Numbered from the stretch's first letter, positions 2,167 through 28,186 are shown. The stretch: 64,000 bases of DNA from a virus (IMGVR_UViG_2863357390_000001); one strand, 5' to 3'. Translations and numbers: made by a program. The notes: a model not told the origin generated them from the sequence alone.

Positions 2167-2191
2167 CCCAACGCACCGAGGAGACCCGCCA

Positions 2192-2824
2192 GTGATCATG
2201 ACCAAGGTGGTGCTGGACCACCGCAACCCGCAGACCGTCGAGGATCTCCGAAACGCCTACCAAATGCACGTCCGCGTCCGGGAGATCGCCGAGGGCCTGC
2301 CCGACCCGGACGGCGGCAGGCTGCTGTGGGGCCTGCACGGCACGACCCTGCTCGTGCAGACCGGAGCGGCGGTGTCCCCGCTCGCCCTGCCCGCCGGGTA
2401 CGCCGTCTCGGTCCACTCCGCGAACCTGGCATCCCGCCTCGACCGGATCACCGCCGGTTCGGTCGTGCGGTGGGCGGTCATCGCCAACCCGACCCGGGCA
2501 CGGGCCAAGGCCACCGCCGTCGGCCCCGACGGCGTCCCGGTGCGCAAGTCGAGGGGCCAGCCCACCCCGGTCGCCCTGGGCGAACGCAACGAGTGGATCA
2601 CCCGCAGGCTCGCCCCGGCACTGGAGATCACCGCGCTGACCGGCAGGCCGCTGCCCGCCGCCGCCGGCACCCAGATCCGCACGAGGCACCGCGTGCACCA
2701 CTCCCGGCACCTGTGGCAGGGCACCGCGACCGTGGCCGACCCGGACGTCCTGCGCGGTCTGGTGTCGTCCGGGATCGGCCACGGCAAGGCGTTCGGCTGC
2801 GGCCTGCTGCTGGTGGCGTCGTGA
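2192..2824 (+). CDS. cas6e: Type I-E-like Cas6e (Cse3/CasE) crRNA-processing endonuclease
   Basis: N-terminal AYQMH, IANPT, C-terminal G-loop GIGHGKAFGCGLLLV. Confidence 0.9.
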   Translation: MIMTKVVLDHRNPQTVEDLRNAYQMHVRVREIAEGLPDPDGGRLLWGLHGTTLLVQTGAAVSPLALPAGYAVSVHSANLASRLDRITAGSVVRWAVIANPTRARAKATAVGPDGVPVRKSRGQPTPVALGERNEWITRRLAPALEITALTGRPLPAAAGTQIRTRHRVHHSRHLWQGTATVADPDVLRGLVSSGIGHGKAFGCGLLLVAS

Positions 2825-3579
2825 CCTCGCCGACCCGACTCGTCTGGGGACTGGCCGGACACCCCGAGCCGACCGGGGCCGTCGCGAACCTGTTCGCCGA
2901 CCGGCCCGGGATGTGCGTGATGTGCGGGCTGTCCGCCGACCGCACCGCCGACGCCGCCCGTGCGACCGGCGCGAACTTCACCGACCAGTACCTGTACCGC
3001 CGGCCGGACTCGGACCGGATCTGCCCGGCGTGCGTGTGGTGCTGCTCGGGGAAACCCCCGGCGACGCTGCGCATGTGGACGGTCGTCGCCGCGATCGGCG
3101 CGACCCTGCCCGACAACCACCCCAAGTGCTGGCTGCCCAGCCAACCAGGTTTGTGCCTGACCAACCGGGCCGCGCCCGGTGTCGTCGCCGACATCCTCGC
3201 CGCCCCACCGGAGGGGGCGTGGCTGGTCACCGTCGCGACCTCCGGGCAGAAACACGTCCTGCCCTACGGGAAAGTCAACCACGGCGGTCCCGAGTGGACG
3301 GTCCGAATGGAGAACACCACGATCACCTCCAACGCCCCCACGTGGCGCCGCGTCCTGGGCCACGCCGCCACACTGCGCGCGGCCCGCCACACCGGCGACG
3401 ACCTCGCCGCCGGGCGGCCCACCCTCGCCGCGATCCGCACCGCCGACGACCTCGACACGTGGAACCACCACCACGCCGGACTCGCCGACCACGTCGGCTC
3501 ACCACTACTCGACCTAGCCCTCTGGTGCCTGACCAAGGAGACGATCCATGACCACGCCCACGCCGCCCCCGTCGCCTGA
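2821..3579 (+). CDS. csf1: Type IV Csf1 (Cas8-like) subunit
   Basis: Zn-finger CVMCG...CPACVWC and SGQKHVL motif; first gene of the IV-B order. Confidence 0.8.
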   Translation: MTSPTRLVWGLAGHPEPTGAVANLFADRPGMCVMCGLSADRTADAARATGANFTDQYLYRRPDSDRICPACVWCCSGKPPATLRMWTVVAAIGATLPDNHPKCWLPSQPGLCLTNRAAPGVVADILAAPPEGAWLVTVATSGQKHVLPYGKVNHGGPEWTVRMENTTITSNAPTWRRVLGHAATLRAARHTGDDLAAGRPTLAAIRTADDLDTWNHHHAGLADHVGSPLLDLALWCLTKETIHDHAHAAPVA

Positions 3580-3907
3580 CGAGCTGATCCAGGCCACCGT
3601 CGCCTGGCTCAACGCGCTGCTCGACTCGGCCTCGGCCGACGTGCTCGGCGTCGCCCACTACTGGGACCGCGCCCAGTCCGCGCTGATCACCGCCGCCACC
3701 GCCGACACGGTCGGGGAGGCGGTCACCACCGCCGCCCGCAAACTCCAGATCGAGACCACCCAGGCCCGCACCGACACCGCGCTGCTGGAGGCGTGCGCGG
3801 TGATCGCCGCCGACTACCCCGCCTGGCAGGCGAGGGTGGAACGCGAAGCCGTCTACCTCGTCGCCCTCGCCCGTGTCGCCCGCACCGCCCGGAAGGCCAC
3901 CCGATGA
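3548..3907 (+). CDS. cas11: Type IV-B small subunit (Cas11-like)
   Basis: Small all-helical protein (YWDR...ARKLQI) between csf1 and csf2. Confidence 0.75.
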   Translation: MTTPTPPPSPDELIQATVAWLNALLDSASADVLGVAHYWDRAQSALITAATADTVGEAVTTAARKLQIETTQARTDTALLEACAVIAADYPAWQARVEREAVYLVALARVARTARKATR

Positions 3908-4794
3908 CCACCACGCTGACGATCCCGTTCACCGCCACCCTGGTGGCGCCGCTGCACCACGGCGCCGGCACCGCCGGCAACACCAGCCTCATCCGCACCC
4001 AGCGGATGGTCCGCCCCGACGGCACCGTAGCGCAGGTGCCGTTCGTGTCCGGGAACTCGCTGCGCCACGGCCTGCGCGCCGGCCTGGCCTGGCACGCCGT
4101 GCGCACCCTGGGCGTCGAGGACGGCGGCCTGTCCAAGGCCGTGGTCGACCTGCTGTGGTCCGGCGGCGCGATCACCCGCACCGGCTCCCAGACCGACCTC
4201 GCGCTGCTGCGCCGGGTCGAGCACCTGTACCCGCCGCTCGCCCTGATGGGGTACAGCGCCGCGGCCGACATGACCGCGGGCACCCTCGCCGTCGACCAGC
4301 TGCACCTGGTCTGCGCCGAGAACGCGTGGCGGCTGCCCGGGCGGCTGGCCGGCGACCCACGCGCCGCACGGCCGGCGTCGGCGTTCCGCGGCGAGGAATT
4401 CGGGACTCGCCACGACGTCGCCGGGACCCCGGTCGACCGGTACACCGCGCTGGCCGACGAGCTGGTCCCCACCACCACCCAGATGATCTACGAGCACCAG
4501 GTCGTGCTGCCCGGTGCCGCCCTGTACGGCGGGCTCGTGCTGACCCCGGCGGCCACCGACGCACAGCTCAGGGTCCTGCTCGTCGCCCTCGACGAGATCA
4601 TGCCCGCCGACCGGGACGGCGTCCGCGTCCTGCAACTTGCCGCGAAGCGCGGCGTCGGCTACGGCACCTGCCGGGTCGACCTCGACCTGCCGGACGGCCT
4701 GCCCACCCCCGCCGACGCCCGCGCCTGGTGGGAAGCCCACCTCGTCGAGCACGCCGAGGAGATCACCGCCCTGTGGCAGGAGATCGTCGCGTGA
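3904..4794 (+). CDS. csf2: Type IV Csf2 (Cas7-like backbone RAMP)
   Basis: TLVAPLHHG, VPFVSGNSLRHGLR, LLWSGG, G-rich AKRGVGYG. Confidence 0.9.
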   Translation: MTTTLTIPFTATLVAPLHHGAGTAGNTSLIRTQRMVRPDGTVAQVPFVSGNSLRHGLRAGLAWHAVRTLGVEDGGLSKAVVDLLWSGGAITRTGSQTDLALLRRVEHLYPPLALMGYSAAADMTAGTLAVDQLHLVCAENAWRLPGRLAGDPRAARPASAFRGEEFGTRHDVAGTPVDRYTALADELVPTTTQMIYEHQVVLPGAALYGGLVLTPAATDAQLRVLLVALDEIMPADRDGVRVLQLAAKRGVGYGTCRVDLDLPDGLPTPADARAWWEAHLVEHAEEITALWQEIVA

Positions 4795-5504
4795 GCCCGG
4801 TCGTCCCCGCCGGCACCGTGGTCGACACCACCGACGACCCGCGCTGGCAGCCACTGGTCGTCACCGCGACCCTGACCGAGCCGGTCGTCGGCCTGGACTC
4901 GCAGCCGCTGTGCCTGGACGGGCCGCTGGCGTGGTGCGCCGCGCAGCTCGCCCTGGCCGACGAGGCCGGCCTGCCGCCGCTGCGGCACGACTGGGCACCC
5001 GACCTCGCCCTGCCCCTGGCCACGTGGACCGCCGCGCCCTCCCGGCCCGACACCGACTCGCGGCTGCGCGCCGCCGACGGCGAACGGGTGTGGGGGTGGG
5101 CGTGCTCGGCCGCGTCGTGGACCGCGCTCGGCCACACCACCGTCGAGATCCGCCGCCGTCCCCCGGTCGGAGAGATGGCCCGGTTCACCGCGGACGGCAA
5201 GCACCACTCCGGGTTGGGCCCGTACAAGGCCCGGGACACGCCGATGGCCGCGACCTGGGTCGACACGGTCGTCTGGCACGCCCTGGGCGACCCCGACGCC
5301 GTCGCCGGGCTGCTCGCCCACCTGGGACACCTGGGCCGGGCGACCCGGCACGGCCACGGCCGCATCCAGACGATCACCGTCGAACCCGGCCGGGACCGGG
5401 ACGCGTGGCGGTCCCGGCCGCTGCCCGACCCGACCGGCCCGGCCGGGTCGATCCGCGCCCCCTACCACCACCACTCCCGGAGGATGCCGTGCCGCACCCC
5501 GTGA
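4791..5504 (+). CDS. csf3: Type IV Csf3 (Cas5-like RAMP)
   Basis: LDGPLAW, WACS, G-loop LGRATRHGHGRI. Confidence 0.85.
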   Translation: MSPVVPAGTVVDTTDDPRWQPLVVTATLTEPVVGLDSQPLCLDGPLAWCAAQLALADEAGLPPLRHDWAPDLALPLATWTAAPSRPDTDSRLRAADGERVWGWACSAASWTALGHTTVEIRRRPPVGEMARFTADGKHHSGLGPYKARDTPMAATWVDTVVWHALGDPDAVAGLLAHLGHLGRATRHGHGRIQTITVEPGRDRDAWRSRPLPDPTGPAGSIRAPYHHHSRRMPCRTP

Positions 5505-6394
5505 TCGCCTGGGACGGGCAGCCGGTCGGCGACCGCTACCCGGCGATGGACGTCGTCCCCGGCGTGCTGCCCTGGTCCACCCTGGACCAGGACTCCCGGC
5601 CGTGGCAGGACCGCAAGAAGCACTGGCACGACCTGGGCGTCCGCGACACCACGCCCCGCGACCACGCCGCGGGGATGATGACCACCGGACGGCACGGCGC
5701 CCTCTCGGGCGGGGTGTCGCGGTTCGACCCGGTGCTCGCCGAGGTCCTGTACCGGTGGTACTGCCCGCCGGGCGGGCGGGTGCTCGACCCGTGCGCGGGC
5801 GGACCCGTACGCGGCCTGGTCGCCTCCCACCTGGGCCTGGAGTACGTCGGCGTCGACCTGGACGCCGACCAGGTCGACGCGAACACCGCCGTCGCGGCGG
5901 GTTCGCCGTACCCGTCCCCGGCCTGGTTCGCCGGGGACGCGCTGACCTACGCCTGGCCGGTCTCCGACGGGGACGCGGACATGGTGCTGACCTGCCCGCC
6001 CTACCACGACCGGGAGCGCTACTCCGACGACCCCCGCGACCTGTCCACCATGGACTGGCCCGCGTTCCTCGACGCCCACCGCGCCGTGGTCGGCCGGGCC
6101 GCCGCGGCGCTGCGCGAGGACCGGTTCCTCGCGTGGGTGATCTCCGACGTCCGCGACCGGCACGGCCACCTGCGCGGCCTGCCCCGCCACGCCTGGCAGC
6201 ACCTGGAGGACGCCGGACTGCACGTCGTCAACGAGCACGTGCTGCGTGCCCCGGTCGGCACCGCGCACAAACGCATGCGCCCGCCGTGGCAGGCGTGCCG
6301 CACCGCGACCCGCCGCCACCAGATCGTCCTGGTCGCGGTCAAGGGCGACCGGCGTGCCGCGACCCGCGCCGTGTCCGGGGGTGGCGGGTGCTGA
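5501..6394 (+). CDS. Phage-type N4C/N6A DNA methyltransferase
   Basis: FDPVLAE, SAM-binding VLDPCAGG, catalytic TCPPY followed by ERYSDDPRDLS. Confidence 0.85.
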   Translation: MIAWDGQPVGDRYPAMDVVPGVLPWSTLDQDSRPWQDRKKHWHDLGVRDTTPRDHAAGMMTTGRHGALSGGVSRFDPVLAEVLYRWYCPPGGRVLDPCAGGPVRGLVASHLGLEYVGVDLDADQVDANTAVAAGSPYPSPAWFAGDALTYAWPVSDGDADMVLTCPPYHDRERYSDDPRDLSTMDWPAFLDAHRAVVGRAAAALREDRFLAWVISDVRDRHGHLRGLPRHAWQHLEDAGLHVVNEHVLRAPVGTAHKRMRPPWQACRTATRRHQIVLVAVKGDRRAATRAVSGGGGC

Positions 6395-7161
6395 TCGACT
6401 CGACCCGGATCACCGACCGCGACCGCGACCACTGGGACGCGCTGGAGCGCTACGACCGGATGCTCGCCGCCGACCCGGCCCTGGACCGCAAGGCCGAGAG
6501 CGCCGTCGCCGAGGTCCGGGCGTTCCTGGACGCGGGCGAGGCGTACGTGTCGGTGTCCTGGGGCAAGGACTCCGTCGTCGTCGCCCACCTGGCAGCCCTG
6601 GCCGAGCTGACGGTCCGGGTGGTGTGGGTCCGGTCGGTCCTGTTCGAGACCCCCGAGTGCGACGCGGTGCGCGACGCGTTCCTCGACGCCCACCCGCAGG
6701 TGCGCTACGAGGAGATCGCGGTCGAAATGCGGAACCCGAAACGCGGCGAACCGGGCTACGACACCCGGCACGCCGACCCGCACGCCGACCACCAGGACGT
6801 CCTCCGGGAGACCCTGACCGGCCGGTGGATCTCCGGGCTGCGCGGCGAGGAGTCCCGGATGCGCCGCATGTCCATCGCCCACCGGGGCCTGTCCACGAAG
6901 AACACGTGCCGGCCGATCGGCCGGTGGGACGCCACGCACGTGTTCGCCTACCTGTGGCGCGAGAAACTCCCGGTGCACCCGGTGTACGCGATGACCGCCG
7001 GCGGACACTACGACCGCCGCTGGCTGCGGGTGCACCCGCTGGGGTCGGCACCCCCGGCCCGGTCCGCCGTGCACGGCCGGGACATGGACTCGTGGGAGGA
7101 CGCCTACTACGGGGACGTGCTCGCCGCCGCGAGGCAGGCCCGCGCCCACCTGTGGCGGTGA
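6388..7161 (+). CDS. CysH-like (PAPS reductase / PP-loop) protein, type IV-B associated
   Basis: PP-loop VSWGKDS, GLRGEESRMR, PIGRW...VFAYL. Confidence 0.85.
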   Translation: MLIDSTRITDRDRDHWDALERYDRMLAADPALDRKAESAVAEVRAFLDAGEAYVSVSWGKDSVVVAHLAALAELTVRVVWVRSVLFETPECDAVRDAFLDAHPQVRYEEIAVEMRNPKRGEPGYDTRHADPHADHQDVLRETLTGRWISGLRGEESRMRRMSIAHRGLSTKNTCRPIGRWDATHVFAYLWREKLPVHPVYAMTAGGHYDRRWLRVHPLGSAPPARSAVHGRDMDSWEDAYYGDVLAAARQARAHLWR

Positions 7162-7174
7162 CCGGCTGAACGAC

Positions 7175-7207
7175 CAACGCCCCGCCCGACAACCGGGCGG
7201 GGCGTTG
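7175..7207. terminator. Intrinsic terminator closing the cas operon
   Basis: 13-bp inverted repeat CAACGCCCCGCCC/GGGCGGGGCGTTG between convergent genes. Confidence 0.8.
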
Positions 7208-7224: not shown

Positions 7225-7686
7225 TCAGGGGCCGTCGGGGTAGACGACGGCGCGGAGTGCCGCGGCACCGATCCTGTAGATGGCCTCGGCCGCGTCGTCG
7301 CTGTGGTCGATCCACCAGCGGGCATCGGTCCGACCGGTCAGCACCTCGCGCATGGCGTCGATCCAGACGTCGCAGAACGCCGGGGTGAATCCGTTGACGC
7401 CGATCGACGCGACCAGCTCTTCGACGTGGCGTTCGACAGCGGGCGCGGCCCTGCCTCGGATGGCTTCGGCCCAGGCGATCTGTTTGGTGCTGCCGGTGAG
7501 CGGGGGCAGGTCGAGGTCGGCGGTGACCCGGGCGCCGGCGCGGTGTTCGGCGGCGGTGTGGCAGGCGAGGCAGGCGCGGCGTTCCTGGCGGCGGACTTCG
7601 CCGCGGTGTTGGTTGCGGACGTTGGTGCCGGTGATGTTGATGGTGTCCTCGTGTCCGCAGGTGCGGGTGATCGTGTACTGGGCCAT
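7225..7686 (-). CDS. Hypothetical phage protein
   Basis: CGH...CLAC and LTGSTKQIAWAEAIR motif; GGAGG RBS. Confidence 0.75.
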   Translation of the reverse strand: MAQYTITRTCGHEDTINITGTNVRNQHRGEVRRQERRACLACHTAAEHRAGARVTADLDLPPLTGSTKQIAWAEAIRGRAAPAVERHVEELVASIGVNGFTPAFCDVWIDAMREVLTGRTDARWWIDHSDDAAEAIYRIGAAALRAVVYPDGP

Positions 7687-9996: not shown

Positions 9997-10092
9997 TCAC
10001 GCGGTCCTCTCGGCGGTGTCCTCGGCGCGGCCGCGGATGTCCACGTCGGCGCGCGCGTACTCCTGCTGGACGTCCGAGGACGCCAACGGCAT
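9997..10092 (-). CDS. Possible 31-aa peptide
   Basis: TGATG coupling to the upstream gene. Confidence 0.35.
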   Translation of the reverse strand: MPLASSDVQQEYARADVDIRGRAEDTAERTA

Positions 10093-10490
10093 CAGTTCGC
10101 CTCCAGCCAGCCGAGCACGGTGGACCGCTCCACCCCGGCCCGGCGGGCGAACGCGCCGGGCGAGTCCGGGTTGTGCCGCCCACGGACACCGACCCGGACG
10201 GTCATCACGGCGACTTGGCGCAGCGCGGCCAGCGCTTCGATCTCGGCCCGGCGTGCCCTGGTCCGCTCGGCCGCGAGGGTTTCGACGAGGTCGTCCTCGC
10301 CGAGCAGGACGCGGTAGGCGGCGGTGAGCGCGGCGGTGCGTTCGTCCTCGTTGTCGGGGTCGGGCCACGTGGCGGCGATCCGGTCGGCCTCGTCGCGCAG
10401 CCGTGCGAGCCGTTCGTCGTCGAGGCCGTGGTCGTCGCCGAGCCACGCCTCGATCTGGTAGTCCTGCACGGGTCGGGGGGTGTCAGTCAT
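10092..10490 (-). CDS. Actinophage protein with C-terminal HTH
   Basis: GAFARRAGVERSTVLGWL HTH; GAGGAAG RBS. Confidence 0.75.
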   Translation of the reverse strand: MTDTPRPVQDYQIEAWLGDDHGLDDERLARLRDEADRIAATWPDPDNEDERTAALTAAYRVLLGEDDLVETLAAERTRARRAEIEALAALRQVAVMTVRVGVRGRHNPDSPGAFARRAGVERSTVLGWLEAN

Positions 10491-10971: not shown

Positions 10972-11283
10972 CTACTCGCCGTCGCCGTTCCCGTGGTCGC
11001 GGTACCACCGCAGCCACGACCAGGGCCTCACCCACACACCCCACGGCATCATCGACTCCTCGGTCCCGGTCAACCCCGCGACCCCGACCTCGATCAGCCG
11101 CATCCCGCCCAGGACGACCACCACGACCGCGGGCGCGACGGCCGGGGCCAGCCACCACGGCCACCGGACGTCCCGGGCCACGTCGGACCACCTGTCCGCC
11201 TCGACCGCGACGACCACGCACCACCCCAGGCCCAAGGCCGCGCTGACGGTTTCCCTGAGCAGCTCCCGGTTCGTCTTCTTCAC
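10972..11283 (-). CDS. Small membrane protein
   Basis: GTGA coupling to cas8e; two hydrophobic segments. Confidence 0.6.
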   Translation of the reverse strand: MKKTNRELLRETVSAALGLGWCVVVAVEADRWSDVARDVRWPWWLAPAVAPAVVVVVLGGMRLIEVGVAGLTGTEESMMPWGVWVRPWSWLRWYRDHGNGDGE

Positions 11284-13151
11284 GACGACTCCTCTCCTTC
11301 CCGTTCCGTGTCGTCCGGTGCGGCGCCCGGAGCACGTCGCCCCGGCGTGGTCAGCGCCGCCTCGGGATCCCACCCGTTGATCAGCCGCGACCGCAGCGCC
11401 GACACCGAGACCACGCAGCGCTCGTCACGCGCCCACTGCGCCTGGGTCTTCTCCTCCCCGAACGCCACCAGCATCGGCGACGGCCTCCCCCCGCCCGCAC
11501 CGCGTCCGGACCCGGGCTTCCGCCCGCCGGACCGCCGGGCCCTCGCGCCCGCCGCCGCGGCGGCGAACGCCCGCGCCTGTACCGGGGTGACCTTTCTCGG
11601 ATAGGGCTTGGTGGGCAGGTCGGTGAAGTACGCCACGTACCGCTCCAACGCGACCCCGGCCTTCGCACGCATCAACATGCCCGACGAGCCGCCGAACGGC
11701 AGCCGGTCCAAGGCCTGCGCGCACAGCCCGACCAGTCGCCGGCCGTAGTCCAGGCACACCCCGGCCAGCTCCTCGTGGGACGGGTCGGTGTCCAGCGCGG
11801 CCAGCCGGCGGGTCGTGTCGGACCACAGCCGCTCCAGCGCGTAGGCGTCGGGCGTGAGCCTGTCGCCGAGGGTGACGTGCGGCAGCGCCTCGGCCGCGGC
11901 GACGGCCAGGCCGCGCAGCGTGGCCGCCGTCTGGTGGTCGAGGAACGCCACCACGCGCGCGGTGGGCTCGGCGGCGTGCACCCCGACCGGTCCCAGGTCG
12001 ACCCGGCCGTTGTGGTCGCCGACGGCCACGGAGCCGTGCGTGTTGTAGACGGCCTGGGACACCCACACCCGCAGCGGCAGGTCGGCGGGCAGCAGGCCGC
12101 GCCGGGCCGCGCCGACGGCGTGCACCAGTGCGCCGCTGTGCCAGCGGCGGGGGTCGGCGGCGGGCGGGACGTGCAACGGCCGGGTGAGCAGCCACCACCG
12201 GGGCTGGTGGCCGTACGGGTCGAACGCGTCGGGGTCCGCCGTGCCCTGGCCGTCCCGGGAGTCGCGGCACAGCAGGGTCGGGTCCAGGCGGTGGTAGTGG
12301 TTCCAGTACCCGGCGACCCGGTCCCCGTCGTGCCACGCCCACCGGGCCACCCGGCCGTCCCGGTCGGGGAACAGCCTCAGCCGGCGCGCGGGCATCGTGG
12401 CCAGCTCCAGCCGCCCGGCCGGGACGCGGTCGACGCGGATGCCCGCCGGCGGGCCCTCGTCGCGTTCCCACTCCGGGGCGTCGCCCGGCGCGCGGGGCGC
12501 GGGCGGCAGGTTGAGCAGCAGCGTGTCCTTGAGGGTGGCGCCGAGCACGACCAGCCGGACGGTGGCGCCCAGCGGGCCGATCCGGGACCCGTAGACCTTG
12601 TTCCCCTTCCCGGCGGGGTCGCCGGGCGCGGCGGGTTTGATCCCGCCGGTGTCGTAGGCCATGCGGACGAGCAGGTTCCGGGCCGCCTCGCCCGGCTCCC
12701 ACGGCGGGTGGTCCGCGCCCCGGTACAGGCCGGGGTGGAACCACGCCGCGCCCTGCCCGCCCAGCCAAGCGGGGTGCAGCTCGACCGCGCCCCGGTTCGG
12801 CTCGGCCAGGTGGGCGCACTGGGCGAAGGGCCGGTCGGGGTCGTACAGGTCGAACCGGTTCGCCCACCGGTCGAGGTAGTCGGCGATCCGGCCGTGCGGG
12901 TCCAGGGTCGGCGCCCGCCAGGCGGCGTCCCACCCGTCGTCGTCGACGGGTCCGGCGGCGGCCTCGTAGACGGCCAGCAGCAGCCGCAGCAGGACCAGGC
13001 CCTCGCCGGACAGGCCGAGGCGGGCGAGGTTGTGCCGGTGCGCGGACTGCAGCGCCTCGCGCAGTCCCACCTCCCGTTCGCCCTCGCCCCCGGTGGTGTA
13101 CACCGGGATCCAGGGCCGGGAGAGCAGGTCGTAGGACGGGGCGCCGGTCAC
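11280..13151 (-). CDS. cas8e: Orphan type I-E Cas8e (Cse1/CasA) homolog with C-terminal extension
   Basis: YDLLSRPWIPV, EVGLREAL, LLRLLLAV, RFDLYDPDRPFAQ, EAARNLL...AYDTGGIK, LGATLKDTLLLNL. Confidence 0.85.
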   Translation of the reverse strand: MTGAPSYDLLSRPWIPVYTTGGEGEREVGLREALQSAHRHNLARLGLSGEGLVLLRLLLAVYEAAAGPVDDDGWDAAWRAPTLDPHGRIADYLDRWANRFDLYDPDRPFAQCAHLAEPNRGAVELHPAWLGGQGAAWFHPGLYRGADHPPWEPGEAARNLLVRMAYDTGGIKPAAPGDPAGKGNKVYGSRIGPLGATVRLVVLGATLKDTLLLNLPPAPRAPGDAPEWERDEGPPAGIRVDRVPAGRLELATMPARRLRLFPDRDGRVARWAWHDGDRVAGYWNHYHRLDPTLLCRDSRDGQGTADPDAFDPYGHQPRWWLLTRPLHVPPAADPRRWHSGALVHAVGAARRGLLPADLPLRVWVSQAVYNTHGSVAVGDHNGRVDLGPVGVHAAEPTARVVAFLDHQTAATLRGLAVAAAEALPHVTLGDRLTPDAYALERLWSDTTRRLAALDTDPSHEELAGVCLDYGRRLVGLCAQALDRLPFGGSSGMLMRAKAGVALERYVAYFTDLPTKPYPRKVTPVQARAFAAAAAGARARRSGGRKPGSGRGAGGGRPSPMLVAFGEEKTQAQWARDERCVVSVSALRSRLINGWDPEAALTTPGRRAPGAAPDDTEREGEESS

Positions 13152-13864
13152 GCGTCGTCACCGGTGGGCCGGGCGGCGTGGACGGTGTCGTGGCCCTCGG
13201 TGGTGACGGTGACCACGAGGATCGGGTCGTCGCCGTCCCGGCGGACGGTGACGCGCACGGCGTCGTAGGCGGCGGTGTCGTCGAGGTCCCACTCGTCGAC
13301 GTACCGTCCGGCTAGGCGCAGCGCGGCGTCCTCGTGGTCCTCCTGCCCGCCGTACTCGTTCTCGCCCAGCATGTCGCGGTCGGATTCGACGCGCTGCCAG
13401 TCGCCGTCGATCTCGTGGGTCTCGATGGTGTAGGCGAACTTGCACTGGGGGACGCCGTCGACGTCGGTGCGGTGCCACCAGACGGTGCCCTGCTCGGCGC
13501 AGTCGGCGAGCTGGCGGACCTCGTACTCGTAGCGGGCGTCGGCTTCGGTCCGGTCGTCGGTGTCGGCGTAGTGGGTGCCGTTGTTGTCCATGGTGCGCAC
13601 GGCCCACCGGACGACCTGCTCGGCGTGTCCGCGTCGGGAGAGCACGGTGTCGGTGTTCGGGTCGGTCACGGGCGGCTCCTCGACCCAGACGCGGCCGGCG
13701 ACGTACTGGATGAGGTCGACGCCGAAGGTGGTCTGGCCGATCTTGTCGGTGCAGTCGGAGGAGCGCTTGACCGATCCCCGGTTGATGGTCTCGACGAGGG
13801 CGTCGACGGTCTCTTTCAGGGCTTCGACGACGGTGGTCTCGTAGTCGCTGCGGAGGATGCGCAT
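13148..13864 (-). CDS. Acidic hypothetical protein
   Basis: GGAG RBS; GTGA-coupled to cas8e. Confidence 0.7.
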   Translation of the reverse strand: MRILRSDYETTVVEALKETVDALVETINRGSVKRSSDCTDKIGQTTFGVDLIQYVAGRVWVEEPPVTDPNTDTVLSRRGHAEQVVRWAVRTMDNNGTHYADTDDRTEADARYEYEVRQLADCAEQGTVWWHRTDVDGVPQCKFAYTIETHEIDGDWQRVESDRDMLGENEYGGQEDHEDAALRLAGRYVDEWDLDDTAAYDAVRVTVRRDGDDPILVVTVTTEGHDTVHAARPTGDDA

Positions 13865-15193: not shown

Positions 15194-15928
15194 TCATCGG
15201 GTGATCCAGGGCCACACGCCGGGCAGCAGCAGCACGGCGGCCACCACGCACACCGGCCACACCACCCACAGCTCGACCCGGCCCCCGGTGCGGAACCTCC
15301 ACCAGGGCGGCGGGCCGAGTTCGTACCACGTCTCCCCGAGGATCGGGACCGGCCAGAGGATCGGGCAGCCGGAGATGGTCATCGCGTCGCCCAGGCAGTG
15401 CACCAGGCAGCCCACGCCGACCGCGATCCCCAGCCAGCCGGTGATGGCGGCGAGTTCGGCGCCCGGGTCGCCGCGGCCGACCCACACCAGCCACACGGTG
15501 ACCACGGCGGCGGCGACCCAGTCGCCGAGGGCGTCGACCGCGAGCAGCACCGCGACCGCGAGCACGACCACCGCCGCCCACGTCCCGGACGAGGACACCC
15601 ACCACGTGGTGGCCGCGCCGACGAGTATGGCGAACGCGAGGGTGTGGGTGAGGTGGCGGTGGGTGCCGTCCAAGTCCTCGTCGCGCGGGCCCCGGGTGGC
15701 CCGGTAGGCCAGCCCGGACAGTCCTTGCACGATCCGGGACAGCAGCCGGGTGACCGGGGCGGCGAACCGGCTCGCGCGGGAGCCGGGGTGGTCGAGGTCG
15801 GGCAGGAGCGCGGACCCGGCGGTCACGGCGGCGACCGTGACGGCCTGGCCCAGGCCGTGGGCGCCGAGCAGCGGGGCGAGGGCCAGTCCGGCGCACCAGC
15901 CGGTGAGCGCGTGCGTGGAACCCAGCAT
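15194..15928 (-). CDS. YdjM-like membrane metal-dependent hydrolase
   Basis: THAL, LPDLDHP, HRHLTHT, HCLGD motifs. Confidence 0.85.
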   Translation of the reverse strand: MLGSTHALTGWCAGLALAPLLGAHGLGQAVTVAAVTAGSALLPDLDHPGSRASRFAAPVTRLLSRIVQGLSGLAYRATRGPRDEDLDGTHRHLTHTLAFAILVGAATTWWVSSSGTWAAVVVLAVAVLLAVDALGDWVAAAVVTVWLVWVGRGDPGAELAAITGWLGIAVGVGCLVHCLGDAMTISGCPILWPVPILGETWYELGPPPWWRFRTGGRVELWVVWPVCVVAAVLLLPGVWPWITR

Positions 15929-15942
15929 CAGGGGTCTCCCGG

Positions 15943-17115
15943 TCAGACGACGGCGCGCAGGCCGTGGCGCAGGTCGGCGTTGAGGGCTTCGCGGATCTCG
16001 CGGGCGCGGGCGGCTCCGACGGACAGGGCTTCACGGACGGCCTGCTCGGTGTAGCTGCCCCGCGCGCCGGGCTGGAGCCGACCCGACTCGATCAGTCGAC
16101 GGGCGGCGTCGAGCTGTCCGTCGAGAGTCGGGTCGGTCGGGTCGGCATCGGAGTCGGGTCGGGTCGGGTCGGGTTCGGTCGACTGCTTCTGAGTCGGGTC
16201 GGCCAGTCGGGTTGCCGGAGTCGGGTCGGCTTCCGGCTCGCCGGTCGGGTCGGGTGAGTCGGCTACCGGGTCGGGTCGGTCGGTCGGGCAGTCGGCTTGT
16301 CGGGTCGGGTCCGGTTCCCGCGCGGTCGGCAGGGTCGGCTTGCCCGACTCGACCGGTCGGGCCGGGTCGGGTCGACTACCCGACTCACCCGACTCTCGCA
16401 GGTCAGGCCCAGAGTCGGGTTCGAGTCGGGTACCCGACTCGGCCACGCGAGTCGGGTACCCGACCCGGCCCGTCGGGTCGGGTGGGACCGGCGAGTCGGC
16501 AGGTGAGTCGGCTACCGGGTCGGGTCGGGTCGGCTTCGCGGAGTCGGCCGGCTCGACGTGGGTCGGGTAGTCGGACAGGCGACCGGTCGGGTAGCCGACC
16601 GGCCCGACCGCGAGTCGGGTACCCGACCCGACCCGACCCGACCGGGAGTCGAGCCAGGCCCGCAGCACCGCGCCGAACGCATGCACCAGCACGCCGACCA
16701 TGATCGGCACGGCGACCGACAGCAGCATCACCACCAGATCCCACCGGCCCGGCAGGTGCCAGCCGGCCATCGAGTCGGGCATCACCGCCCGGGTCGTGCC
16801 GCCGGGCACCGCGATCGAGTGCCCGGCGAGGTTGACCACGACCGACAGGCCGGTGGCGCCGACCAGCAGGCCCAGTCCCCAGGCGCGGACCTGCCGGTCG
16901 CGGGCGACGACGTGCATCACCGCCCCCGCGGAGGCGGCGAGGTCGAGGACGACCGGCCCGAGCGGCGCGGTGCGGGGCCCCCAGCCGCCGAGCATCATCA
17001 CCGGCAACTGCTGCTCGAACGACAGGACGAACGCGCCGCCGGCCAGGGGCAGCAGCAGGGCGCCGAGGACGGCGACGAGCCATCCGGGCGTGGGGGTGGT
17101 GTGGGGTGCGGTCAC
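15943..17115 (-). CDS. Spd/DUF2637-like transfer-spreading membrane protein with C-terminal HTH
   Basis: Four TM helices (AFVLSF...LD...LSVVVN), low-complexity linker, terminal HTH; start could be ATG 17391. Confidence 0.7.
   Translation of the reverse strand: MTAPHTTPTPGWLVAVLGALLLPLAGGAFVLSFEQQLPVMMLGGWGPRTAPLGPVVLDLAASAGAVMHVVARDRQVRAWGLGLLVGATGLSVVVNLAGHSIAVPGGTTRAVMPDSMAGWHLPGRWDLVVMLLSVAVPIMVGVLVHAFGAVLRAWLDSRSGRVGSGTRLAVGPVGYPTGRLSDYPTHVEPADSAKPTRPDPVADSPADSPVPPDPTGRVGYPTRVAESGTRLEPDSGPDLRESGESGSRPDPARPVESGKPTLPTAREPDPTRQADCPTDRPDPVADSPDPTGEPEADPTPATRLADPTQKQSTEPDPTRPDSDADPTDPTLDGQLDAARRLIESGRLQPGARGSYTEQAVREALSVGAARAREIREALNADLRHGLRAVV
16081..16642. repeat. Dense GTCGG/CCGAC pentamer array with palindromes
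   Basis: Tandem (GTCGG)n; GTCGGGTACCCGAC palindrome three times. Confidence 0.85.
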
Positions 17116-17139
17116 GGCGTCTTCCTGGTGTTTTGCCTG

Positions 17140-17303
17140 GTGAATGGGGGTGTGAAGGGGGTGAATGCGAGGGTGAGTCGGTTCGGTGTCACCGGGTCTC
17201 ACTCCGCTCTCACTCCGCATCACTGCGGCTTTCACCCCCGTGTCACCCCGTATCACTGCGGTCTCACCTCCGGTCTCACCCCGCTTGTCACCCCCGCTCT
17301 CAC
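17140..17303. repeat. Helically phased TCAC/GTGA repeat array (clt-like candidate)
   Basis: 11 TCAC motifs spaced 10-12 nt plus 4 inverted GTGA motifs, directly downstream of traB. Confidence 0.7.
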
Positions 17304-17387
17304 CCCCTCCGACCTGTAACTGCGTGTCCGTCGGCCGGGGTGACGCGTCGACGGACGGACCGGCCGCCTCCGGGACTTCGGCGCGGA

Positions 17388-19400
17388 TCATGCCGGGACC
17401 AACTCGCGCACGAACCTGAACCCGGTGTCGGTGCGCTCCAGTTGCCCGGTGTCCACACGGCCGTTCAGCGACTTGTAGACCCACGCCGGGGACCGGACCG
17501 CCTTTCGGGCCACGTCGACCAAATCCCCGGCCCGGATCTCCTCCACGCCCTGGGCCTGGAGTTCGAGCAGCCGCTGCTCGAACAGCGCGGCGGCCTCGGC
17601 GGGCGTGGCTTTGGGTCCGGCGGGTCGCTCCCAGTCGCCGTCCGTGCCGCCGATGGGCAGCGGGTCGTCGATGCCCGGCTGCACGGAAGGGTCCGGGTCG
17701 TCGGCACCGGGCCGCCACGGCTCCTCGAAGTCGTCGCCGAGCAGATCCCGCACCGGCGCCTCGTCGTCTTCGTCGTCCACGACCGGCACCGGCACCGGGG
17801 TGGGCGGCACAACGGGTGCTGCGGGTGCGCTCGGGGCCGCGCCGACCATGCTCTCGACCGGAACCCGGGTGGTGTACAGCTCGCCGAACGCCGCCGTGGT
17901 CATCGCGTCCAAATCGTCGCCGTGCAGCCGTGCCCAGCGGGCCAGCATCCGGAGCTGGTCGTCGGAGATCCCCAGGGTCCGGCCAGGGGTGGTCCACAGC
18001 GCCCGGTCGACGCCGGGGGCGACCAGGTAGCAGCACGCGGGCCGTTCGTTCTTCCACCGTGACGGGTCGGCACCGGCCTCCAGGACCTCGTCGGGCATGG
18101 CGAACGCGGCGTCTTCCTGCTCGGCGACGCCGAAGCAGAGCACCGCGCCGAACTGCGCGCGCGCGGCCACGTCGAGCGACACGTACGAGGGCCTCTGCAT
18201 GGACAAGGTGAACTCGACGCCCACCGACCGGATGCGCTCCATGGACTGGACGAACGCCTTGTCGCCCAGGAACAGGCCGGATCCCTCCTCGATGTGCACG
18301 CGCAGCCGGGGAATGCCGCACCCGGGCTCCCAGTTCTTCAGGCCGCGGCGGCCGAGGTAGTCGGCCCGCGCCGGTACGACCTTGTCCCGCAGAGCCCGCA
18401 TCAGCGCGTGGGCCTCGGCCTCGGTGCGGATGACCCACCGGATCCCCTCGGCCAGCGGCCCCAGGGACTGCGCGCCCTTCACCGTGTCGACGTAGATCGT
18501 GTAGGTGTCCCGGCGGGTGAACTCCTCGGCGAAGATCACGTAGGCGCCGAAGGTCTTGCCCGCACCGGTCATTCCCATGATCAGGAGCGCGGTCTCGCCC
18601 CATCCGGGTCGGTGCAACGGCAGCATCATCGGCCGCCCGTCCTCGTACACCCCGATCCGGTACGGCTGCGCCGGCGTGCCGCCCAGCGCGGACGGTTCGG
18701 TGTACGGGGTGGACTCGCGCAGCATGTCCCGGCGGACCAGGGTCAGCTCGGCCTGCGACGAGTCGTCCGGGGACGGGGTGATGCGCGCACCGCCCGGCGG
18801 GAGCCGGAGCACCGACTCGAGCTTGGACAGGGAGCGCTGGGCGTCGTCGACGGTCTCGCCGCCCTCCAGCGACAGCGGCCCGGCCAGCCGGTCCTCCGAC
18901 TTCTCCTTCGGCGTGTAGGCCGAGCCCTCGAGCGCACCGCCGACCTTGGTGGACACCTCGTCCCACAGCGACCGGCGGGCGCCCTCGGTCGCGTCCTGGG
19001 TGCGGCGCAGCACCCGGCGTACGATCCACGCCCCGGTCACCGACGCCCCCGCCCACCCCCACACGCCCAGCAGCGGCTGCGACACCGGCCCGGCCATCAC
19101 CGCGGCGATCTGGTGGGCGCCGACCAGGATCGGCGTGCCCAGCGCGAACACCCGGCCCAGCATGTTGCGCCGTCGGTCCAGGTGGTGGACCAGGACGACC
19201 ATGCCCGCGGTCGTGGCCCCGATGCCCAGGGTCATCCACGGCAGCGACTCCGGCGTGGCCAGTCCCCACAGGGTGCACGACAACGCGAAGTCGCCGGCCA
19301 GTCCGGCGACGGGCGCGGCGGCCACGGCCAGGCGGGACGCGGCGTGCTTGGCCACCCGGCCCCCGGCGTCCTTCGACGCTCTGATCAGCGGGTTAACCAC
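17388..19400 (-). CDS. traB: FtsK/SpoIIIE-like TraB plasmid-transfer DNA translocase
   Basis: N-terminal TM region, Walker A GMTGAGKT, Walker B VHIEEG, SMQRPS, C-terminal wHTH. Confidence 0.85.
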   Translation of the reverse strand: MVNPLIRASKDAGGRVAKHAASRLAVAAAPVAGLAGDFALSCTLWGLATPESLPWMTLGIGATTAGMVVLVHHLDRRRNMLGRVFALGTPILVGAHQIAAVMAGPVSQPLLGVWGWAGASVTGAWIVRRVLRRTQDATEGARRSLWDEVSTKVGGALEGSAYTPKEKSEDRLAGPLSLEGGETVDDAQRSLSKLESVLRLPPGGARITPSPDDSSQAELTLVRRDMLRESTPYTEPSALGGTPAQPYRIGVYEDGRPMMLPLHRPGWGETALLIMGMTGAGKTFGAYVIFAEEFTRRDTYTIYVDTVKGAQSLGPLAEGIRWVIRTEAEAHALMRALRDKVVPARADYLGRRGLKNWEPGCGIPRLRVHIEEGSGLFLGDKAFVQSMERIRSVGVEFTLSMQRPSYVSLDVAARAQFGAVLCFGVAEQEDAAFAMPDEVLEAGADPSRWKNERPACCYLVAPGVDRALWTTPGRTLGISDDQLRMLARWARLHGDDLDAMTTAAFGELYTTRVPVESMVGAAPSAPAAPVVPPTPVPVPVVDDEDDEAPVRDLLGDDFEEPWRPGADDPDPSVQPGIDDPLPIGGTDGDWERPAGPKATPAEAAALFEQRLLELQAQGVEEIRAGDLVDVARKAVRSPAWVYKSLNGRVDTGQLERTDTGFRFVRELVPA

Positions 19401-19401
19401 G

Positions 19402-19782
19402 TCACCCCTCCCACGTCGTCTTCTTGCGCTTCTGCTCCGGGGTCATGCCGCGTTTGAAGTACTTGAAGTACAGGGCGTACGACTTGACGGCCATGCGTCC
19501 GGCGTGCAGCACCGCGTCGGCGGACTGCCGCAGCGCCCAGGCGACGATCTTCGCCCGGGCCTTGGCGGTCAGGCGGCCGAACGGGTCGCTGATCTGGCGG
19601 CCCTCCTCGTCGTAGCGGCGGAACTGGAAGGTCGCCAGGCTCACCTGGACCTGGTCGGCCTGGTAGGAGAGCAGGAACGCGAACTCCCGGCACGCGTCGC
19701 GTACCACCACGGTGAATGCCTCCAGGCTGGCGCCGGATTGCAGTTCCACCCGGTACAGGTCGTCGAAGCGGTCGTCACTCAC
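19402..19782 (-). CDS. TraA-like plasmid transfer protein
   Basis: Basic helical protein (AKARAKIVAWAL...YFK) directly upstream of traB. Confidence 0.55.
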   Translation of the reverse strand: MSDDRFDDLYRVELQSGASLEAFTVVVRDACREFAFLLSYQADQVQVSLATFQFRRYDEEGRQISDPFGRLTAKARAKIVAWALRQSADAVLHAGRMAVKSYALYFKYFKRGMTPEQKRKKTTWEG

Positions 19783-20051
19783 CGCTGGTCCTTTCCGGTG
19801 TCGAGCGCGGGGGAATGGGGAGGGAAGAACTCGGGGTCGTCGGGATGCGGGTCGCGGCCGAAGTCGCGGACGGCGAGGATCGTGTGCACGGCCTGGGCAC
19901 GTCCGGCGCACCACCGGCCGGCCCGCTCGACCACGGCCACGGCGGCCAGCAGCACGGCCCGTGTCGTGGCCAGCACGAGCACGGCGGCCAGCCACCCGTG
20001 GTAGGAAGCCAGCCACCACGCCGTGACCAGACGGATGCGCATTCCGATCAC
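19779..20051 (-). CDS. Small hypothetical membrane protein
   Basis: Coupled within the transfer operon. Confidence 0.55.
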   Translation of the reverse strand: MIGMRIRLVTAWWLASYHGWLAAVLVLATTRAVLLAAVAVVERAGRWCAGRAQAVHTILAVRDFGRDPHPDDPEFFPPHSPALDTGKDQR

Positions 20052-20551
20052 CGGGTCAGCCGATCCAGGTCACGGCGCTCCAACCGGCCGTGGTCACGCA
20101 ACGCGGCGGCCACGGCGGTCACCGCGTCCCAGTTGAGGTCGAGCAGACCCTCGACCTCGACGTCGAGCCCGGCCGCGTCCAACTCGGACTCCCGATCGCG
20201 CAGCGCCGCGGCGACCTCCCGGAAATCGCCGCGGTTGCACCGGGCCCGGTGCACCTGGCGGCGGGCGGCCGAGGGCCGGACGCCCCGGGCGACGCGGCAG
20301 CGGATCTCGGCGGCCGGTCCGACCGCGGCGACCACGGCGGCGACGTCGGGGTGCTCGTCCACGCGGCGGGACAGCTCGCTGCGGCCCTGCACGTGCCAGT
20401 CGGACAGCCACGGCTTGCGCCAGGCCAGCCATACTCGGGCGACGGGCAGCCCGAGCAGTATGCCGATCACGGCGTGCGCGGCCTCGTGGACGGAGATCGC
20501 GTGCAAGTCGTCGGCGAGGCGTTCGGCGACGGCGGCGGGCGGGGCGGTCAC
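20048..20551 (-). CDS. HExxH zinc-metalloprotease-like protein (M41/M50-like)
   Basis: VHEAAHAVI, AVGPAAE, GDF motifs. Confidence 0.7.
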   Translation of the reverse strand: MTAPPAAVAERLADDLHAISVHEAAHAVIGILLGLPVARVWLAWRKPWLSDWHVQGRSELSRRVDEHPDVAAVVAAVGPAAEIRCRVARGVRPSAARRQVHRARCNRGDFREVAAALRDRESELDAAGLDVEVEGLLDLNWDAVTAVAAALRDHGRLERRDLDRLTR

Positions 20552-21159
20552 CGGTCGTCCCCGGTCTGCGGGGTGGACAGCCAGTCGGCGAGCCGGGTGA
20601 TCACGACGGGGTCGTTCGAGCCGGACAGCCGCCGGGCCTGCTCGTAGCGGTCGGTGTTCTCGGCGGACACGGGGGCGAGGACGGGAGCGGCGAGCCGTTT
20701 GGCCGTCTTGATCGCGTCGCGCACGATCCGGGCGTGGTCGAACCCGAGCCGGTCGTACAGGCCGTCGTCGACGCGCCGCCATTCGGCGGTGGCCGCGTCG
20801 TCCCCGGCGACCGGGACGGGCAGGAACGTGGCCACGGTGACGTAGGCGAGGGTGGCGTAGTCGCCCCGGGGGTCGCGGCCCGGGTCGGCGTAGCCGCCGA
20901 CGTGGTGCCAGCGGCCGGGCACGACGATCCCGGTCTCCTCGGCGAGTTCGCGGATCGCGGCGGCCAGCGGGGTCTCGTCGGGGTGGACGTGCCCGCCGGG
21001 CAGCGCGGGTTGGCCCTGGTAGGGGTCCTTGCCGCGGGCGACGGTGAGCACCCACCAGTCGTGGCCGACGCGGTGCAGGACGACGGCGTCGGCGGTGAGC
21101 GCGGGATGCCGGCGGTCCGGCCGGTCCGGGTTGTGGGGTGTGCTGGTACCCGGGAGCAT
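20548..21159 (-). CDS. NUDIX hydrolase
   Basis: ALPGGHVHPDETPLAAAIRELAEETG, RDPRG, GDDA, LGFDH. Confidence 0.93.
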   Translation of the reverse strand: MLPGTSTPHNPDRPDRRHPALTADAVVLHRVGHDWWVLTVARGKDPYQGQPALPGGHVHPDETPLAAAIRELAEETGIVVPGRWHHVGGYADPGRDPRGDYATLAYVTVATFLPVPVAGDDAATAEWRRVDDGLYDRLGFDHARIVRDAIKTAKRLAAPVLAPVSAENTDRYEQARRLSGSNDPVVITRLADWLSTPQTGDDR

Positions 21160-21212
21160 CGGGGTCCCTCCTGGCTGTCGGTGGCGTTGCGGTTGTCGTG
21201 GTCGGGGTGGGG

Positions 21213-21264
21213 CCCGGTCGGGGCGGGGACGTGCCGGTCAGCGTGTCGACCCGCCCCGACCGGG
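21213..21264. terminator. 15-bp inverted repeat (terminator or RNA stem)
   Basis: CCCGGTCGGGGCGGG / CCCGCCCCGACCGGG. Confidence 0.6.
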
Positions 21265-22748: not shown

Positions 22749-22945
22749 GGGTTCCTCCGGGCGTGCTGGGCGGCCAGGGCGGCGGTGAGCTGGGCGTTGA
22801 GCGCGTGGACCTGTCCGGCCTTGTCGTACTGGATGCTGGCGATGCCGTTGCAGGTGTTGCAGTAGCGCACGGCGTCCTTGTTGTGTACGCGCCAGTCGCT
22901 GTCGGCTCCGTGCCCGGTGGACCCGGGGCAGGTGGTGTTGGTCAT
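22745..22945 (-). CDS. Small Cys-containing hypothetical protein
   Basis: CxxC; AAAGGG RBS; coupled to the next gene. Confidence 0.55.
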   Translation of the reverse strand: MTNTTCPGSTGHGADSDWRVHNKDAVRYCNTCNGIASIQYDKAGQVHALNAQLTAALAAQHARRNP

Positions 22946-23403: not shown

Positions 23404-23727
23404 TCAGTGGTCGTGGTCGGGTTCGGGTTGGGGTTCGGGTAGGGCCAGGAGGCCGGCCACGGCGTCGGCGAGCGTTCCGTCGTGGTGCCAGGTGGCGTGT
23501 TCGCCGTCGCGGCGGTGGGCGGTGGCGTCGTCCGGGCCTCGGGTGGCCATGACGTCCACTACCGCCGTGCCGGGCCACACGCGCATGCCGGAGAAGCCGC
23601 ATTTGCCGTCCTCGTAGGCGATACGCAGCGGGAACCACTTCCACGGGCCTTGTGTGGCGAGCAGGTCGAGGTCGGGTACGTCGGCTAGCCATTCGGCGAG
23701 CGCTTCGGGGGTCAGGTCGTCGGCCAC
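23404..23727 (-). CDS. Hypothetical protein
   Basis: GGAG RBS before GTG. Confidence 0.65.
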   Translation of the reverse strand: MADDLTPEALAEWLADVPDLDLLATQGPWKWFPLRIAYEDGKCGFSGMRVWPGTAVVDVMATRGPDDATAHRRDGEHATWHHDGTLADAVAGLLALPEPQPEPDHDH

Positions 23728-28000: not shown

Positions 28001-28186
28001 ATGCCCCGCTTCCTTGCCACCGTGCTCAGGACCTGTTTCGTGGTCGTGGTCGTGTTCAACGTCGTCGGCGCGGTCGGCAACCTGGTCACCGGCCAGCCGA
28101 CCACCGGCTACATCGCGAACCTGGCGTTCGCACTGAGTGTGTACAACCTCGCCCGCCCCGGCGACCCGCACTGGGCGCGAGCATGA
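28001..28186 (+). CDS. Small membrane protein
   Basis: Two hydrophobic segments. Confidence 0.5.
   Translation: MPRFLATVLRTCFVVVVVFNVVGAVGNLVTGQPTTGYIANLAFALSVYNLARPGDPHWARA

Follow-up and report, generated by a model that had tools for sequence, protein, structure and literature searches.

A type IV-B CRISPR-Cas cassette headed by a Cas6e-like gene in actinobacterial prophages, and its possible action on host type I-E CRISPR RNAs

[quoted passage not shown] All seven reading frames are intact upon translation and correspond, in order, to a Cas6e-like RNase, Csf1, Cas11, Csf2, Csf3, a methyltransferase and a CysH-like protein. The Cas6e-like endoribonuclease (2192-2824, 210 aa) matches PF08798 (1.1e-26), the PADLOC Cas6e profile (1.8e-27) and the structure 5U07, and its GTG start at 2192 lies 8 nt downstream of a ribosome-binding site read from the sequence (GAGGAG, 2178-2183, plus strand). 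The translation of csf1, the type IV large subunit (2821-3579), matches PADLOC Csf1_0_IV (9.5e-34) and, below the cut-off, TIGR03114 (1.1e-06), and contains CxxC cysteine pairs at residues 32-35 and 68-71. Next in the operon are cas11, the type IV small subunit (3548-3907; PADLOC typeIV_Cas11, 1.7e-25), csf2, the type IV Cas7 backbone subunit (3904-4794), which matches PADLOC typeIV_Cas7 over its full length (2.2e-86) as well as the Csf2 of PDB 7JHY (1.1e-10), and csf3, the type IV Cas5 (4791-5504; PADLOC Csf3_0_IV, 1.9e-28; TIGR03116, 2.5e-18). The operon is completed by genes for a predicted amino-DNA methyltransferase (5501-6394; PF01555, 2.7e-06; phrog_12517, 5e-86; phrog_498, 2.9e-48) and a CysH-like PP-loop protein (6388-7161; PF01507, 9.2e-12).

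Translational coupling extends throughout the cassette: stop and start codons overlap as GTGA at 2821, 4791 and 5501 and as ATGA at 3904, csf1 and cas11 share 32 nt (cas11 ATG at 3548, csf1 stop at 3577-3579), and the methyltransferase and cysH-like genes share 7 nt (6388-6394). Upstream lie a RuvC-like gene (phrog_159, 9.8e-39, within the open reading frame (ORF) at 197-1111) and a gene for a DUF3307 membrane protein (1660-2166), the gap 5' of cas6e being 25 nt. Downstream, a GC-rich hairpin of 14 bp sits between convergent genes (7175-7207; -32.9 kcal/mol, z -4.9); it is without a T-run, and is likely a terminator. An earlier description made from the DNA alone (the sequence-only reading) had proposed seven overlapping genes, placed after ruvC and DUF3307 and closed by a single terminator, and it is borne out on both counts, the former by clean translation, the junctions themselves and profile matches for all seven genes, the latter by profile matches and the strength of the hairpin. 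A consensus scan, which is unsuited to high-GC actinobacteria, found no promoter, and an Rfam search over positions 1-26,000 returned chance-level matches only.

With regard to classification, the signature of type IV-B, namely csf1, cas11, csf2 and csf3 in one operon together with an adjacent cysH-like gene, is present (PADLOC matches, overlapping stop and start codons), and the cassette likewise shares the absences typical of the subtype: a DinG or RecD helicase, an effector nuclease, an array and adaptation genes. The IV-B identity first suggested by the sequence-only reading is thus supported by Csf1, Cas11, Csf2, Csf3 and the CysH-like protein, with no DinG and no Cas1 or array in the window, and the profile searches that might have contradicted it instead yield PADLOC matches to Csf1, Cas11, Csf2 and Csf3. 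The NCBIfam equivalogs for Csf1, Csf2 and Csf3 score well under their cut-offs (TIGR03115 for Csf2, 31.6 bits against 130), which places the three proteins at a distance from seed families that are based on type IV-A. One defining feature of IV-B does not hold here, since the subtype is described as lacking Cas6 or any other enzyme that processes CRISPR RNA (crRNA), whereas a Cas6e-like gene heads this operon. Cas6-bearing IV-B loci were rare exceptions in a 2020 survey, which listed only 12 instances (PMC7038947), and these may overlap with the loci described below. Because the Cas6e-like gene occurs throughout the clade to which the cassette belongs, we consider the latter an IV-B variant as opposed to an instance of the textbook layout. 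The label 'atypical' given to it previously consequently holds for the departure from the described arrangement, but not within the actinobacterial phage and prophage clade as a whole, where Cas6e is the rule.

The Cas6e-like protein scores 94.8 bits against PF08798 (cut-off 25) and 36.4 bits against the equivalog TIGR01907, which is under the cut-off of 45.2, and its alignments with T. fusca Cas6e (5U07, 1.3e-14) and T. thermophilus Cse3 extend over the full length. Its relatives within the clade are only 21-36% identical to the window copy, yet retain the N-terminal His and a G[IV]GxxKxxGCGL loop: His26 is nearly invariant, while Gly194, Gly196, Gly202 and Gly204 of the loop are invariant. 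We take the conserved N-terminal His to be the catalytic residue of Cas6e, as in the E. coli and T. thermophilus enzymes, and judging from these residues the window protein looks catalytically intact. The Cas6e of type I-E Cascade (T. fusca 5U07; T. thermophilus 1WJ9, 2Y8W) shares full-length homology, the His and the glycine-rich loop with the window protein, but the window gene is not accompanied by cas7e, cas5e or cse2, and is instead translationally coupled to csf1. Some variation exists among related loci. In a Frankia symbiont (L011, 7710-8795) and a viral contig (L021, 705-1781) the Cas6e-like frame continues for ~140 residues past the glycine loop and reaches csf1, which may represent a C-terminal extension or a fused small gene, and in another viral contig (L026, 6111-7084) the gene is split across two overlapping frames and is without the conserved His, and so is probably a broken copy.

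A Csf2 profile search yielded 14 loci from species-representative genomes and another 21 from viral contigs of IMG/VR, 32 of these loci being non-redundant. A Cas6e-like ORF lies directly 5' of csf1 in the window and in 23 of these 32 loci, a count that takes in the one broken copy and one copy cut by a contig end, and a further three contigs begin inside csf1, such that the upstream DNA is missing. The Csf2 tree groups the Cas6e-bearing loci in a single clade (support 100/98) and places outside it three loci that lack Cas6e and have a primase-like gene or an integrase 5' of csf1; every clade member that retains upstream DNA has a Cas6e-like gene before csf1. None of 23 ORFs flanking the window cassette recurs in the flanks of the other loci, with the exception of the RuvC-like gene in one locus, and the cassette genes alone are common to the 32 non-redundant loci; the cassette therefore moves as a unit between phage backbones. 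Synteny and the Csf2 tree thus identify cas6e as constant within the clade wherever upstream DNA is retained and the methyltransferase as present in 9 of 27 loci, an arrangement that is not the common, described layout of IV-B.

Outside this clade, relatives are distant. Searches of GenBank phages with the cassette (Megablast) and with the Cas6e-like and CysH-like proteins (tblastn) gave no match, and Csf2 (tblastn) matched Skermania phage SPI1 alone, at 30% identity. In that phage (L038, KR011061.1, 4807-8440) Orf40-Orf44, whose annotation is hypothetical throughout, correspond in size and order to csf1-cas11-csf2-csf3-cysH, although only Orf42 (Csf2, 30%, tblastn) and Orf44 (PAPS_reduct, 1e-08) are confirmed by matches; the 167-aa Orf39 that precedes the set has no Pfam match, and SPI1 apparently carries a distant, Cas6-less IV-B set. 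In PLSDB we find only distant Csf2 relatives (26-34% identity), including those of JS623 and of Rhodococcus plasmids, which are without Cas6e. A weak Csf2-like match (1.9e-19) also exists in another genome of the class (G151:C63:9087-16918), ~6 kb from an I-E-like Cas7e (2.2e-65), and may be an adjacent pairing of type IV and I-E of another kind.

The two final genes of the cassette differ in how strictly they are kept. The methyltransferase, predicted from its sequence to be of the N6/N4 type (PF01555, 27.9 bits against a cut-off of 26.7), has motif I as DPxAGG and motif IV as CPPY, the first residue of the latter being unusual with respect to the reference pattern [DNS]PP[YF]; both motifs are conserved in eight relatives. 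Five of the nine clade loci that possess it have the window's arrangement, with csf3 on one side of it and cysH on the other, and in the remaining four it follows cysH. The nine are dispersed across the Csf2 tree, and the family is a common orphan methyltransferase in very diverse phages; it is an optional add-on of the cassette. In the CysH-like protein, SWGxDS is invariant in 23 relatives, a Lys is nearly invariant and CRPxxxW is conserved, and the structural model (predicted local distance difference test (pLDDT) 93) has as its nearest folds the 3'-phosphoadenosine and adenosine 5'-phosphosulfate (PAPS/APS) reductases (template modelling (TM) score 0.5-0.56) and PP-loop ATPases. From sequence and model, therefore, we predict an intact PP-loop enzyme. 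Its translation is without the ECG[LI]H Cys motif that true CysH has at the C-terminus. An adenylylating activity has been proposed for the CysH-like protein (PMC8175902), and the lack of the C-terminal catalytic Cys motif fits this idea.

The window corresponds to G000:C1:1106492-1170491 of a single 7.35 Mb chromosome of 72% G+C. Between 39.6 and 60 kb the window encodes a terminase, a portal, a major head, a tape measure and an endolysin protein, and at 62.8-64 kb a tyrosine integrase; given these phage genes within a chromosome, the cassette sits in a prophage. The earlier term 'phage-borne' is accordingly to be taken as 'prophage-borne'. No att direct repeats longer than 16 nt were found between the integrase end and the region 40-60 kb upstream, and on the left the spacer matches described below extend to window position -14,662. 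ARAGORN calls a 96-nt tRNA-SeC at 63788-63883 (plus strand), inside the integrase frame (62801-64000, minus strand), which is either a false call or the integration target.

The claim that the cassette is array-less also stands. No CRISPR array exists between genome positions 0.95 and 2.46 Mb, no host-type repeat with up to 6 mismatches was found in the 86 kb from window -20 kb to +66 kb, and searches with the repeat core, given a 4-nt loop, and with complete repeats gave matches only at chance level. Cas1 genes are found only at 0.845 and 2.559 Mb of the genome, none in the window, the genome contains no match to the DinG DEAD_2 domain (PF06733), and a search of 20 ORFs between positions 3 and 28,000 detected neither a helicase nor a nuclease domain at E<=0.01. 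Other parts of the prophage are of separate interest. An orphan Cas8e/Cse1-like gene (11280-13157, minus strand, a 625-aa frame) matches in its N-terminal part alone (PF09481, 1.6e-47, positions 1-277 of 450; PADLOC Cas8e, 2.2e-47), its C-terminal ~300 residues having no family match, and none of the 32 related loci has a counterpart within 10 kb of csf2; the gene could represent a second decoy of the prophage directed at I-E. A leftward run of genes at 15194-21237 (minus strand) encodes a YdjM-like membrane hydrolase, a 684-aa phrog_24831 protein with weak FtsK/SpoIIIE similarity and a Nudix protein.

A conspicuous feature of the hosts is their possession of type I-E systems. The window host has two I-E loci with Cas8e, Cas7e, Cas6e and Cas3e, one of them with Cas1, and its arrays comprise about nine of I-E type and three built on a 37-nt repeat. 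The core of the I-E repeat is CCCCGC-N4-GCGGGG, and this stem is present in arrays of most hosts examined. At the second I-E locus (L046, genome 3,842,000-3,858,000) there is no Cas1 match and the Cas3e frame of 805 aa covers profile positions 23-593 of 680, so that the locus may be effector-only or partly decayed. The 37-nt-repeat arrays lie at genome 846,463-924,112, with the Cas1 at 845,042 adjoining the first of them, and PADLOC identifies no cas genes among six ORFs beside those at 0.918-0.924 Mb. I-E Cas7e is found in all nine isolate genomes with the cassette, i.e. the window host and eight others (Phytoactinopolyspora, Nocardia, Brevibacterium, Nocardiopsis, Scrofimicrobium, Corynebacterium, a Frankia symbiont and Cutibacterium), and was not found in two cassette-bearing metagenome-assembled genomes, which are possibly incomplete. 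As background, an evenly drawn sample of the class contains Cas7e in 61 of 394 good genomes and 30 of 164 genera; the Cas6e-bearing clade is present in three genomes of the same sample, all three of which have I-E.

A second line of evidence comes from spacers that match the chromosome that carries them. The window host possesses 168 spacers, and for 25 of them a full or nearly full match exists elsewhere than in the arrays. Genome positions 1,091,829-1,167,097 (window -14,662 to +60,606), a region of 75 kb that makes up 1% of the genome, contain 20 of these 25 matches, which flank the cassette on both sides, with none inside 2192-7161. Sixteen of the 20 derive from six I-E arrays (seven matches at 33/33, four with one mismatch), and AA stands directly upstream, at the position of the I-E protospacer adjacent motif (PAM), in 14 of the 16. 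Within the window, I-E protospacers with 33/33 identity and an AA PAM lie at 10087-10119, 23596-23628, 30188-30220, 40561-40593 (in the terminase gene) and 49136-49168. Less complete matches with AA are found at 7390-7422 (27/33 nt aligned, the nearest to the cassette), 20913-20946 (two mismatches), 45608-45640 (30 nt aligned) and 60574-60606 (27 nt aligned), and those at 22758-22790 (one mismatch) and 46460-46492 (30 nt aligned, one mismatch) have CA and GA, respectively, upstream. The 37-nt-repeat arrays account for the other four of the 20 prophage matches, and TTC stands upstream of three: two lie in the window, at 28028-28062 (35/35, CTC upstream) and 56812-56843 (one mismatch, TTC PAM), and two outside it, at -3,882 and -13,822. 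The five self-matches beyond the prophage are at genome 1,576,384, 2,381,721, 5,606,408, 6,846,685 and 6,850,157, the last two, 3.5 kb apart near 6.85 Mb, being perhaps in another mobile element. The window host thus tolerates self-targeting more widely than in this prophage.

The pattern recurs in other hosts, for which the self-targeting test covered 11-21 kb of prophage. I-E spacers against the resident cassette prophage exist in six of the eight hosts tested, the window host included, and AA stands upstream of most of the protospacers in the others. Brevibacterium otitidis has four I-E spacer matches, including ones in csf2 and cysH, the Frankia symbiont three, including csf1 and csf2, Phytoactinopolyspora limicola three, Cutibacterium porci one, in csf1, and Corynebacterium phocae three, of which two are perfect and one has two mismatches. 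Where self-targeting of PAM-flanked sequences is tolerated, this is generally accepted as a sign that the targeted element encodes a CRISPR inhibitor.

Comparison with known systems places the cassette closest to the IV-B locus on the megaplasmid of Mycobacterium sp. JS623 (PDB 7JHY; PMC7937560; PMC8175902, PMC7038947), with which it shares the five signature genes and their order. Both are without an array, adaptation genes, a helicase and a nuclease, both reside on a mobile element, and the CysH-like protein shares with CasCysH the PP-loop motif and the lack of the C-terminal ECG[LI]H Cys of true CysH. The cassette differs in possessing its own Cas6e-family RNase as first gene, to which some loci of the clade add a methyltransferase; furthermore, the window Csf2 matches that of 7JHY only remotely (E 1e-10 over 122 residues) and shares 26-34% identity with plasmid Csf2 proteins of PLSDB. 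Moreover, Cas6e-headed cassettes are found on prophages and co-occur with host I-E systems, whereas the IV-B loci with which we compare them are on plasmids, and IV-B overall is reported to be negatively correlated with other CRISPR types. Type IV-A3 (PMC7038947; 10.1101/2023.06.23.546257) similarly combines a type IV effector with a Cas6e-derived RNase and a functional tie to host I-E, but it has arrays and a DinG helicase, is without Cas11 and CysH, and belongs to proteobacterial conjugative plasmids, while the window cassette has Cas11 and CysH and is without array and helicase. CRISPR parts carried by viruses are also known as the solitary repeat RNAs termed Racr and the IV-B mini-array locus of Fuxivirus, and are considered to act against host CRISPR immunity or to make use of it (PMC11656645, PMC10848311); the window cassette, by contrast, has neither repeat nor mini-array, and the agent proposed here is a multi-protein Cas complex.

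The interpretation that we favour, to which we give roughly even chances, is that this mobile, array-less, nuclease-free and Cas6e-headed IV-B of temperate actinophages acts on host I-E crRNAs as a means of counter-defence. In such a scheme the phage Cas6e would bind and cut the I-E repeat hairpins of host pre-crRNA and remain on the 3' hairpin, whereupon Csf3, Csf2, Cas11 and Csf1 would assemble on the cut crRNA, nucleated by Cas6e. Host guides, including those directed against the prophage, would thereby be diverted into a complex unable to recruit Cas3, and I-E interference would be blunted. The CysH-like enzyme, and the methyltransferase where present, would then act on the nucleic acid held by the complex. 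The stronger form of this idea, in which an entire Cas complex serves as an anti-CRISPR, Cas6e feeding host I-E pre-crRNA into a nuclease-free Csf complex and so disarming I-E, is one that we put forward tentatively, at somewhat less than even chances; in it, a chemical alteration of the captured RNA, or of the target of that RNA, might be contributed by the CysH-like enzyme. We infer all three of the central elements, i.e. I-E crRNA as the substrate, its loading into the Csf complex and the resulting protection. The counter-defence role raised by the sequence-only reading gains circumstantial support from the presence of I-E in nine of nine hosts and from PAM-flanked self-targeting I-E spacers.

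Several observations weigh against this interpretation. Self-targeting shows that some inhibitor is present or that the host system is silent, and does not single out the gene responsible; the prophage also bears the orphan Cas8e-like gene and many unannotated small genes, and the five matches outside the prophage would also fit a generally inactive host system. In Scrofimicrobium and Nocardiopsis, no matching spacer was found (11-21 kb of prophage, arrays adjoining cas genes). The JS623 IV-B complex bound heterogeneous RNA, in which I-E crRNAs were not enriched despite co-expression of an I-E Cas6 and array (PMC7937560), yet the JS623 operon encodes no Cas6, and the relationship of its Csf2 to that of the window is remote; possession of its own Cas6e would give the trap a kinetic advantage that the Cas6-less complex lacked. 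The prophage Cas6e is only 23-27% identical to the two Cas6e proteins of its host, and its recognition of the host repeat is for this reason an assumption. The hosts with I-E are few (nine genera) and related genomes are not independent samples, while the survey that considered IV-B overall found a negative correlation with other CRISPR types (PMC7038947). Finally, sequestration of guides leaves the CysH-like protein unexplained, which is the weakest part of the model.

Alternative hypotheses may explain the same observations. The cassette may borrow host I-E crRNAs for nuclease-free silencing or marking of competing phages, plasmids or host genes, in the manner of CRISPR interference (CRISPRi) by type IV-A, with the CysH-like protein and methyltransferase modifying the bound target, and with the tolerance of self-targeting owed to other anti-CRISPR genes. 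Conservation of Cas6e and co-occurrence with I-E apply equally to this hypothesis, and a precedent exists in IV-A3, whose Cas6 derives from I-E and which depends on I-E functions in trans (PMC7038947; 10.1101/2023.06.23.546257). Moreover, a complete Cascade-like set of subunits is kept, and the strict retention of the CysH-like protein with its invariant SWGxDS suggests an effector step beyond passive sequestration. However, the cassette has no helicase or nuclease with which to act once bound, and many host guides target the prophage, so that the complex would bind its own genome. We consider guide borrowing rather unlikely, while noting that nothing in the present evidence separates it from sequestration. 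A similarly low probability attaches to the view that the cassette has no link to CRISPR RNA, the Csf filament binding other RNAs, the Cas6e-like protein processing or anchoring a phage or host hairpin RNA, and the whole serving nucleic-acid modification or regulation in the phage cycle through CysH and the methyltransferase. Under this hypothesis, host range and other anti-CRISPR genes would account for the co-occurrence with I-E and for self-targeting. The heterogeneous RNA bound by the JS623 complex (PMC7937560) would agree with it, as would the affiliation of the methyltransferase to a common orphan phage family, the wide occurrence of PAPS-reductase-like genes in phages without Csf genes (PMC11437467; a phrog_2302 match) and the distance between the prophage and host Cas6e.

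Nonetheless, no candidate RNA gene or conserved hairpin lies beside the cassette, given the 25-nt gap 5' of cas6e, the terminator after cysH and the null Rfam result, and I-E in nine of nine hosts from nine genera, compared with about 15-18% of the class, is unlikely to arise by chance. A host range shared by descent is also unlikely because the flanks show different phage backbones. Least probable by far, in our view, is that the cassette is an inactive CRISPR-Cas remnant carried passively by the prophage. Its lack of an array, adaptation genes and a nuclease, and the NCBIfam equivalog scores under their cut-offs, could be read in this way, but none of the seven frames is interrupted and translational coupling joins them all, more than 20 loci with identities of 21-66% preserve the catalytic and structural motifs, and gene order is kept on unrelated phage backbones. 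Conservation throughout the clade thus makes a dead remnant unlikely.

In the literature that we searched, there is no description of a Cas6e-headed IV-B clade of actinophages, of its tie to I-E hosts or of the self-targeting pattern, and reviews and primary papers up to 2026 list the function and RNA partner of IV-B as unknown (PMC8175902, PMC11656645, PMC13676074). The conserved Cas6e names a candidate RNA for IV-B, namely host I-E crRNA, while the host association and tolerated self-targeting name a candidate role, namely protection from I-E immunity. Lysogens whose I-E loci are intact, and which possess numerous PAM-flanked spacers directed at the prophage they carry, are natural test systems, and render the question of IV-B function directly testable. 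If the counter-defence interpretation is true, the reported negative link of IV-B with other CRISPR types would be reversed for the Cas6e clade, and phages would be seen to use a full Cas complex against CRISPR, beyond small proteins or repeat RNAs. This would constitute the first function assigned to subtype IV-B, and a CRISPR inhibitor based on Cas proteins.

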